This document shows, one piece after another, positions 2,850-4,221 of a stretch of 64,000 bases of DNA. A program made the translations under genes and the position numbers. A model generated the notes under the pieces. That model did no database searches, had not been told where the DNA came from, and saw only the letters and a program-made list of their open reading frames with translations. How positions within the stretch are numbered: the first letter of the stretch is position 1; each line of letters opens with the position of its first letter. Source of the DNA: Escherichia coli (lineage in GTDB: Bacteria; Pseudomonadota; Gammaproteobacteria; Enterobacterales; Enterobacteriaceae); the NCBI RefSeq assembly GCF_024298765.1, contig NZ_CP101210.1; one strand, written 5' to 3'.

Positions 2850-3475
2850 CTACATATAGATAAATTCATATTTCTCGATATACGACCCAATTTTATTAAC
2901 ACGAGCTGTTACCCATACACCTGTCATCCCCTGCTTATGGTGACTGCGCAGGAACTCTTTATTTGTACAAAGTTGTATCCATCTGGAAGTGTTTTGATCT
3001 TTCAACCAGAGTCCCGCTTCACAATGTCCATATTTTCCTCTTGATGGTCCCGGAAAAACAACATCATATTCAGATTCATAGCTAATAACCTTATCCGGAA
3101 AAAGATAAATACAGACATCGTAATAGTTCAGACTCAGTATAAATCCAAGACAAAATCCCCCCGTGAATGCATTTAATAAATACTTTAATGTTCTGTTAAA
3201 GGTGCGGATATAAAATGCATAAATAAAAGAAAGAGCCCCGGTGATTATACCGGTGCAAAATATGTTGTCCATTCAGGTACCGTATTTTGTAAAACAGTAT
3301 AATGAGATATAGCGGATGCCCATAACATATACCAGCACAAACCACCTGTAATAAGATATGTTATTGCTGTGGAAAACCATTCCCTGTATTTATTTTCAGG
3401 GTAATTGTTCTTGCCCATCAACGTATTTCCAGAATATTTAAAATAACCTGTCACCGAAACGGAATAAAGGCGCAA
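2850..3475 (-). CDS. Hypothetical small membrane protein(s): overlapping ORFs 3245..3475 and 2850..3272, possibly one frameshifted gene
   Basis: Hydrophobic segments, low GC, co-oriented directly downstream of the truncated dGTPase-like gene; no family recognised. Confidence 0.25.
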
Positions 3476-3517
3476 TAACCATAACGGGAAAATATGCGCC
3501 TCTGGTAATCGACAGTG

Positions 3518-4221
3518 TTACTTCAGACGGTGAGTTTCCCATTCCTTGACTGCAAATGTATCCATCATACCTGAAATATAGTCAACCACTGCTCGTTTTT
3601 TGCTGATTTCAAATATACAGGAATCTGGTTGGGGTAAGGTGAATTTAAGTTCAGGAGGCAGAAATTTATAATTCTCTCCTTCATTGTAAAAGTCATATAA
3701 ATCCCTGATTATTTTATTTCCCCTGAACTCATAGGTGAGGATATTACGTTTTCGCATGATGACTTTAAAGAGAAGTTTTTTGAGCCCTTCGGATAACGCA
3801 TTCAGTTTCCCGAATCCTAGCTCCTGAAAACCATTCAGGTTCGTTACTACAGAAATATCTGCAACGAGGCGATTGACAATATTTGAAGTTAACTCCTTGC
3901 GGAATATGATGGCAAATTCTTCTGAGGTTTTCAGTAAGTTAGCCTGAAAAGCGGTGTTTCTCGACTGAGTAACGATTTCCCTGAACTGTTCCCTCGCTCC
4001 CCGGAATTCGTCAGAAATCTGAAACTCATATTCAATATCTTCAATCGTGACCATGTTCCTGCTAAGGGCATCTTCCAGGTCATGCGCGGCATAGGCAATC
4101 TCATCCGCGAGATCCATTATCTGCGCATTAATCGTTTTCTCTCCGGGATTCAGATCGAGCTGATTTTCAGCAAGCAGGTTAATGTAAAAATAGTAATCAT
4201 CATCATAAATGAACTTGCCGG
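3518..4221 (-). pseudogene. dGTP triphosphohydrolase-like (Dgt family, HD domain) gene, 5'-truncated; only the C-terminal ~235 codons remain
   Basis: Motifs MDLADEIAYAAHDLEDAL and AVVDYISGMMDTFAVKEWE are typical of the C-terminal half of dGTPase-family proteins; the frame runs into the 4222-4272 palindrome and the N-terminal metal-binding part is absent. Confidence 0.55.

Follow-up and report, generated by a model that had tools for sequence, protein, structure and literature searches.

What remains of an apparent dGTPase gene that, at positions 2,850 to 4,221 of a 64,000-nucleotide stretch of Escherichia coli DNA (contig NZ_CP101210.1, the whole stretch being termed here the window), breaks off at an insertion sequence palindrome and lies next to hydrophobic open reading frames? 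The original prediction viewed the locus as a decayed nucleotide-depletion defence islet, composed of a truncated Dgt-type protein and of accompanying membrane ORFs. Our analysis makes it highly probable that this locus is the non-functional remnant of a stand-alone dGTPase-family cargo gene, with a probable anti-phage ancestor, which was beheaded in an IS21-associated event. The features involved are collected in Table 1.

Table 1. Features of the dGTPase locus and its flank, in window coordinates.
Feature	Position	Strand	Remarks
Frameshifted gene for a 189-aa protein	2850..3418	-	Three predicted TM helices and a conserved Cys-containing beta domain
dGTPase-family (dNTP triphosphohydrolase) gene remnant	3518..4221	-	Codons 178-410 plus stop; HD_assoc kept, HD catalytic core gone
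Artefactual 5' extension of the 253-aa ORF	4222..4279	-	ATG plus 19 codons, running through the palindrome and the antisense resolvase remnant
Perfect 51-bp palindrome of two IS21 istB-side terminal inverted repeats	4222..4272		Repeats joined at their inner ends, TGTCA tips outwards
Tn3-family resolvase (tnpR) C-terminal remnant	4272..4544	+	Internal stop; unrelated to the dGTPase

The truncated gene could be aligned with an intact allele from the sister genome KC-Dl-1 (L002:11120-12352), with 99% identity from window position 4221, and this DNA alignment sets the breakpoint at 4221/4222, exactly where the palindrome begins. Compared with its 410-aa ancestor, as represented by the intact allele, the remnant comprises residues 178-410, or 57% of the protein, in agreement with the claim that the C-terminal half of a dGTPase was kept on the reverse strand. 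The ORF list extends this gene to a 253-aa ORF (3518-4279, minus strand), the first 19 codons of which, MLLSTPRCLTVTVKHRGVD, are a read-through of foreign DNA and not dGTPase sequence: the intact protein has PRAAATAGKFIY at the position where the window reads ...KHRGVDTGKFIY. In RefSeq this ORF still figures as an ordinary dGTPase CDS. In Pfam searches its product matched HD_assoc (PF13286, E=3.6e-15, 56.7 bits versus a cut-off of 22.2) and gave no match to HD, the domain found in the intact allele with E=6.7e-15. Both the PADLOC dGTPase profile (E=1.9e-36, profile positions 161-369 of 395) and TIGR01353 (profile positions 161-386 of 389) were matched by the fragment over their C-terminal part only, and the curated TIGR01353 cut-off of 152.35 bits was passed by the intact allele (313.8 bits) and missed by the fragment (112.7 bits).

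The motifs of the intact allele, THSLEVAQ (H77), AHDIGNPPFGHSGE (H107, D108, H116 and E119) and IMDLADE (D213), align to the catalytic motifs of the Shewanella putrefaciens defence enzyme Sp-dGTPase and of PDB 9vwa. The window copy has lost H77, H107/D108 and H116/E119 and retains D213 alone, a loss that covers all metal ligands but one as well as the entire catalytic dyad (H116/E119). Because the metal ligands other than D213 and the His/Glu dyad are gone, the fragment should be inactive, and on sequence grounds we consider the stump almost certainly so, where it had been called probably inactive. In Sp-dGTPase, mutation of the HD motif abolishes defence (Tal et al. preprint).

The palindrome at which the gene ends could be assigned to IS21. 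Its arms, at 4222-4246 and 4248-4272, measure 25 nt each, are complementary at 25/25 positions and are separated by a 1-nt spacer. Each of them reproduces without mismatch the istB-proximal end of an IS21 annotated at L007 3002-3028, the istA-side end of which differs from the arms, and the left arm together with the next two bases matches the istB-side end at 27/27 positions; the number of chance matches expected for the arm sequence is 0. The beheading of the gene at an IS end is thereby borne out and the element named. Positions 4222-4272 carry IS21 terminal repeats and not an IS21 element, since neither istA/istB nor a transposase is present there, both arms are right ends and the whole is only 51 bp long. 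No target-site duplication was found at the palindrome, which is flanked by CCGG and ATAA. As to its origin, an (IS21)2 tandem junction is ruled out by the outward orientation of the TGTCA tips, and a simple internal deletion of one IS21 cannot explain a scar in which both arms are the same end. Since both arms derive from the same IS21 end, more than a simple internal deletion would have been needed, by a route that we infer. A full IS21 at the dGTPase breakpoint, which could represent an intermediate, was found in none of 5426 complete E. coli genomes; the 26-nt flank extension of the top matches in this search is a weak similarity and probably due to chance.

On its other side the scar adjoins the resolvase remnant, which shares 88-92% identity with the 3' part of tnpR genes adjoining Tn3-family transposases and is labelled in RefSeq 'recombinase family protein, missing N-terminus, internal stop'. 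The possibility that a palindrome arm is part of the resolvase gene was rejected, as tnpR homologues diverge exactly at the start of the arm. Short IS21 relics were also observed elsewhere. E. coli MLI114 (NZ_CP117013; L006 3003-3054) carries a comparable 52-bp mini-IS21, in which IRR and IRL meet at their inner ends between TTTG direct repeats; it represents either a MITE-like element or the scar of a nearly precise excision. Within the window, a third solo 25-nt IS21 right-end repeat is located at 60131-60155 on the minus strand, where it is bordered by the terminus of an IS3-family element and, on its opposite side, by the remnant of an IS91-family transposase; the IS21 sequence ends there after ~25-26 nt, as it does in the palindrome.

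The IS21 tip could matter for expression of the stump. A possible hybrid promoter was noticed at window 4199-4227 (minus strand), as a consensus match only, with an outward TTGACA in the IS21 tip and the -10-like hexamer GATGAT 17 nt downstream in the dGTPase stump; through this outward TTGACA the stump could be transcribed. Given also that the reading frame stays open over 253 codons, carries a CDS annotation and is found as an exact 253-aa sequence on ~300 contigs, one may imagine that the C-terminal fragment is still expressed from the IS21 -35 element and has kept a residual role, for example by disturbing the oligomerisation of other dNTPases. A promoter and terminator scan of the region, however, returned 10 promoter-like matches versus 10.0 expected, which is not above shuffled sequence. 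The fragment moreover lacks the HD core, which constitutes the dimer interface in SpdGTPase and CloA, the adjacent gene is decaying too, and the ~100% identity of the 19 complete genomes that carry this form means that clonal descent explains its persistence. We consider a residual role scarcely credible and retain the reading of the stump as a non-functional remnant. An Rfam scan of window positions 1-9000 detected no RNA family.

A search for intact versions of the locus in related genomes, as suggested in the original prediction, was successful. Among 5426 complete E. coli genomes, 345 carry the locus; at least 80% of it is present in 318 of them, about the number in which the 410-aa protein is intact. 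The dGTPase gene occurs in ~6% of E. coli genomes and is confined there to island DNA. In KC-Dl-1 the 410-aa gene is intact, bears the annotation 'dGTPase family protein' and is followed by a gene for a 189-aa hypothetical protein. The intact E. coli allele is represented by the proteins WP_000271619 and WP_042095589. The form seen in the window was found at ~100% identity in exactly 19 complete E. coli genomes: window positions 2400-4900 are 100% identical to the chromosomes of about 19 such genomes, among them strain 104 (chicken) and APEC O78:H4 E12049. Because these 19 carriers are ~100% identical, their sequences suggest one truncation event followed by clonal spread. Strain 104 contains a single copy of the locus, and the window maps in this strain to a large IS-rich island located between yicL/nlpA and a tyrosine integrase, which also contains ireA, fec and pgt as well as an autotransporter gene and numerous IS fragments. 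In E. coli STE15 (NZ_CP095823.1 3991482-3991578) only 97 bp of the dGTPase gene are left, ending at the same breakpoint as in the window, and this piece may have arisen from the same truncation by additional decay.

Several neighbours of the locus deserve mention. A gene encoding a 302-aa HlyE/ClyA-family pore-forming toxin (window 4875-5783, plus strand; Pfam HlyE E=4.7e-111; 'hemolysin HlyE' in RefSeq) sits between the resolvase remnant and an IS1 copy, a short way upstream of the fec operon, and is absent at the matching position in the sister islands examined (ABU 83972 and KC-Dl-1). An island-borne H-NS paralogue (window 1999-2433, plus strand), matching Pfam Histone_HNS and its N-terminal domain, and a ProQ/FinO-family gene (window 620-1099, minus strand) are conserved beside the dGTPase locus in every E. 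coli island examined, together with YagK/YfjJ and HTH genes.

The DNA of this region is AT-rich, as had been noted, with 35-39% GC over positions 2550-3900. One or two small hydrophobic ORFs had been proposed to follow the stump here. Their hydrophobic nature and common orientation were upheld, but their number was not: ORFs 3245-3475 and 2850-3272 constitute a single 189-aa gene, split by a 1-nt deletion (one T lost) in a T5 run at ~3260, which RefSeq likewise annotates as frameshifted. Its intact form is found at L002:10451-11020. The intact 189-aa product displays three hydropathy peaks, and its confident AlphaFold model (pLDDT 88) has three long helices and a C-terminal beta domain; the family alignment shows two invariant cysteines in the beta domain, and the protein also has an FPGPxxG motif. 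The family comprises 61 database clusters, nearly all from Enterobacterales. We found for this protein no Pfam family, no PADLOC model match, no nucleotidyltransferase (NTase) match and no structural relative in the PDB.

The proximity of the two genes raised the question whether they once formed a two-gene defence module, with the dGTPase as effector and the 3-TM protein as membrane sensor or regulator, that has since decayed. They are co-oriented and lie ~100 bp apart, regulated two-gene dNTPase systems do exist (Clover CloA/CloB), and in a sample evenly spaced along the ranking of matches both genes were intact in ~1/2 of the E. coli carriers. In the same sample, however, ~1/3 of the carriers combined an intact dGTPase gene with a 3'-truncated membrane gene, and the same combination is found on plasmid pNDM5_LS003, the sole plasmid copy. 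Homologues of the membrane gene in Pectobacterium, Pseudomonas, Hafnia, Pantoea and Enterobacter stand alone (5/5 genera checked), surrounded by unrelated chromosomal genes and with no dGTPase neighbour at these loci. Conversely, the membrane gene is absent at 4/4 loci carrying dGTPase homologues (66-81% identity) in Proteus, Klebsiella, Morganella and Cronobacter. The lack of any PADLOC match also counts against a defence module. Because its homologues stand alone and about one third of the carriers have an intact dGTPase beside a truncated membrane gene, the membrane gene is a neighbour of the dGTPase and not its partner. A conserved partnership was thus rejected on the gene neighbourhoods of both families, and we regard the two-gene module as very unlikely; the membrane ORFs do not belong to a dGTPase system, and the stand-alone dGTPase gene remains our preferred reading.

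Whether this stand-alone ancestor served in defence was approached through its intact relatives. The intact 410-aa protein matches the PADLOC dGTPase model strongly (E=3.8e-108, 360 bits). Among the handful of loci sampled for their context, a 75%-identical dGTPase gene of Klebsiella variicola directly adjoins Avs3a/Avs3b, a type I R-M system (REase_I E=2e-273, MTase_I E=2e-192) lies 3 kb from the dGTPase gene in E. coli 03_3503, and two homologues lie within prophages: the one in Proteus follows a prophage integrase, and the one in Morganella is found between the lambdoid replication genes and the gene for the Q antiterminator, in the opposite orientation. Against these stands the similarity to validated enzymes. 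The intact protein shares ~39% identity with Sp-dGTPase over 332 aligned residues and ~31% over the full length, and so falls under the level of at least 45% identity to Sp-dGTPase at which alone Tal et al. observed defence-island enrichment (53%, versus 10% below it). Every dGTPase tested by these authors belongs to the Sp-dGTPase clade (Tal et al., Table S5). The NCBIfam model antiphage_dGTPase (NF041026), with a cut-off of 400 bits, was reached neither by the intact protein (277.6 bits) nor by the fragment (100.8 bits). By its sequence, the ancestor is placed outside the experimentally validated clade; by analogy with its relatives, a role as an anti-phage defence gene is plausible. Of the notion of a former defence islet, the PADLOC match and the Avs3, R-M and prophage context of intact relatives can be kept, set against the distance from Sp-dGTPase and the fact that the window itself carries no annotated defence system.

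These same data bear on another possibility, namely that the ancestor was a metabolic or housekeeping dNTPase controlling the dNTP pool, which became an island passenger by chance and never acted in defence. The identity below 45%, a range in which only 10% of the homologues lie near defence genes, and the NF041026 score would accord with such an enzyme, as would the Cronobacter homologue, which is found among nucleoside-metabolism genes, and the H-NS, ProQ-like and fec genes that neighbour the locus in the window and in ABU 83972. On the other hand, a gene restricted to ~6% of E. coli genomes and to island DNA, with close homologues in prophage cargo positions and directly beside Avs3, and with a strong PADLOC dGTPase match, hardly behaves like a housekeeping one. 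Nor is it the housekeeping Dgt of E. coli (505 aa, PDB 4X9E), a member of the same superfamily: on the E. coli Dgt-type model NF003429, with an equivalog cut-off of 405 bits, the intact allele scored 153.7 and the fragment 60.3, and 4X9E matched the intact allele over residues 39-125 only (E=3.8e-21). This identity was rejected on both counts. The gene is hence a non-housekeeping member of the dGTPase family, and the fragment is neither a piece of a housekeeping dgt gene nor unrelated to dGTPases. We judge a purely metabolic ancestor unlikely and favour an ancestor with a probable anti-phage role.

A further cluster was observed in E. coli MRY15-131 (L022 12105-15844), where four genes lie beyond an IS3 that adjoins the intact dGTPase gene: a thymidylate-synthase-like gene, a gene for a 314-aa hypothetical protein, one for an XRE protein of 360 aa with a match to PADLOC PD-Lambda-2_B (E=9e-30), and lastly a MazG-like gene. 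They are followed by a transposase remnant and then by a DEAD/DEAH helicase-family gene, the product annotation of which is shared by the type I restriction subunit confirmed with PADLOC in 03_3503. The group could represent a further defence cluster centred on nucleotides.

The history of the locus could then be as follows. A stand-alone 410-aa dGTPase-family dNTP triphosphohydrolase would have been carried as cargo of an E. coli genomic island; to judge by its characterised relatives, its most likely function would have been protection from phage through hydrolysis of dGTP (or dNTPs) in the course of infection. A rearrangement associated with IS21 would, in one lineage, have taken out the promoter and codons 1-177 and fused the stump to the resolvase fragment via the scar of two IS21 right ends. 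Then, or separately, the functionally unrelated 3-TM gene would have acquired its 1-nt frameshift. Of this history, the loss of the 5' part, the IS21 nature of the scar, the frameshift and the absence of linkage between the two genes are observed; the defence role of the intact ancestor and the order and mechanism of the rearrangements are inferred. We also considered whether the 410-aa island and prophage clade is a distinct dNTPase defence family, with a specificity or regulation perhaps unlike those of Sp-dGTPase and Clover, and the 3-TM protein its membrane modulator in E. coli; in that case the window would hold the wreck of a two-component nucleotide-depletion system, an idea to which we give little credence.

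The locus is an ordinary pseudogene of one clonal lineage of E. coli, a beheaded copy of a nucleotide-depletion gene of the known single-gene type, beside an unrelated membrane-protein gene that is decaying independently. It marks a probable former defence-cargo spot in an IS-riddled E. coli island, the intact gene having a type I R-M system in its vicinity in some sister genomes. Although its product lacks the catalytic half, the 253-aa ORF could be scored as a defence system by HMM-based finders. The intact allele, present in ~6% of complete E. coli genomes, and not the remnant, is the sensible object for a study of this clade.

Both the scar and the gene can be set beside known systems. Nearly precise excision of Tn10 provides a comparison for the scar. 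Remnants of nearly precise IS or transposon excision, and MITE-like mini-IS elements, likewise consist of a ~50-bp palindrome of terminal repeats alone; in contrast to these, both arms of the scar are istB-side ends and its flanks are unrelated and without target duplication, which points to more than one event. Among dNTPase systems, Clover pairs CloA, an HD effector of the dGTPase family, with the nucleotidyltransferase CloB, which is encoded by the gene next to it, whereas the gene beside the dGTPase here encodes a 3-TM protein and not a Pol-beta-type nucleotidyltransferase. CloA structures match the intact allele at only E ~1e-24, and a Clover-type two-gene system was rejected, the neighbour being without NTase features. 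The closest solved structure to the intact allele is PDB 9vwa (E=5.7e-114, end to end over residues 1-407); all motifs are conserved between the intact allele and this 402-aa 'deoxyguanosinetriphosphate triphosphohydrolase-like protein' (PDB 9vwa/9vwc/9vwg), and cluster look-ups assigned 402-aa sequences similar to 9vwa to marine and environmental bacteria such as Marinomonas. With Sp-dGTPase (S. putrefaciens CN-32, PDB 9P8W; Tal et al. 2022) the intact E. coli allele shares the HD plus HD_assoc architecture and the conserved catalytic motifs. The dGTPases of Tal et al. are single-gene systems carried by mobile islands or prophages in the vicinity of R-M or other defence genes, and at some of the handful of loci sampled the intact relatives of the window gene have a similar setting. 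The E. coli clade, a candidate for a defence gene, differs from Sp-dGTPase in being shorter (410 aa versus about 440-460 aa), and the window copy differs from it further in having lost its catalytic half.
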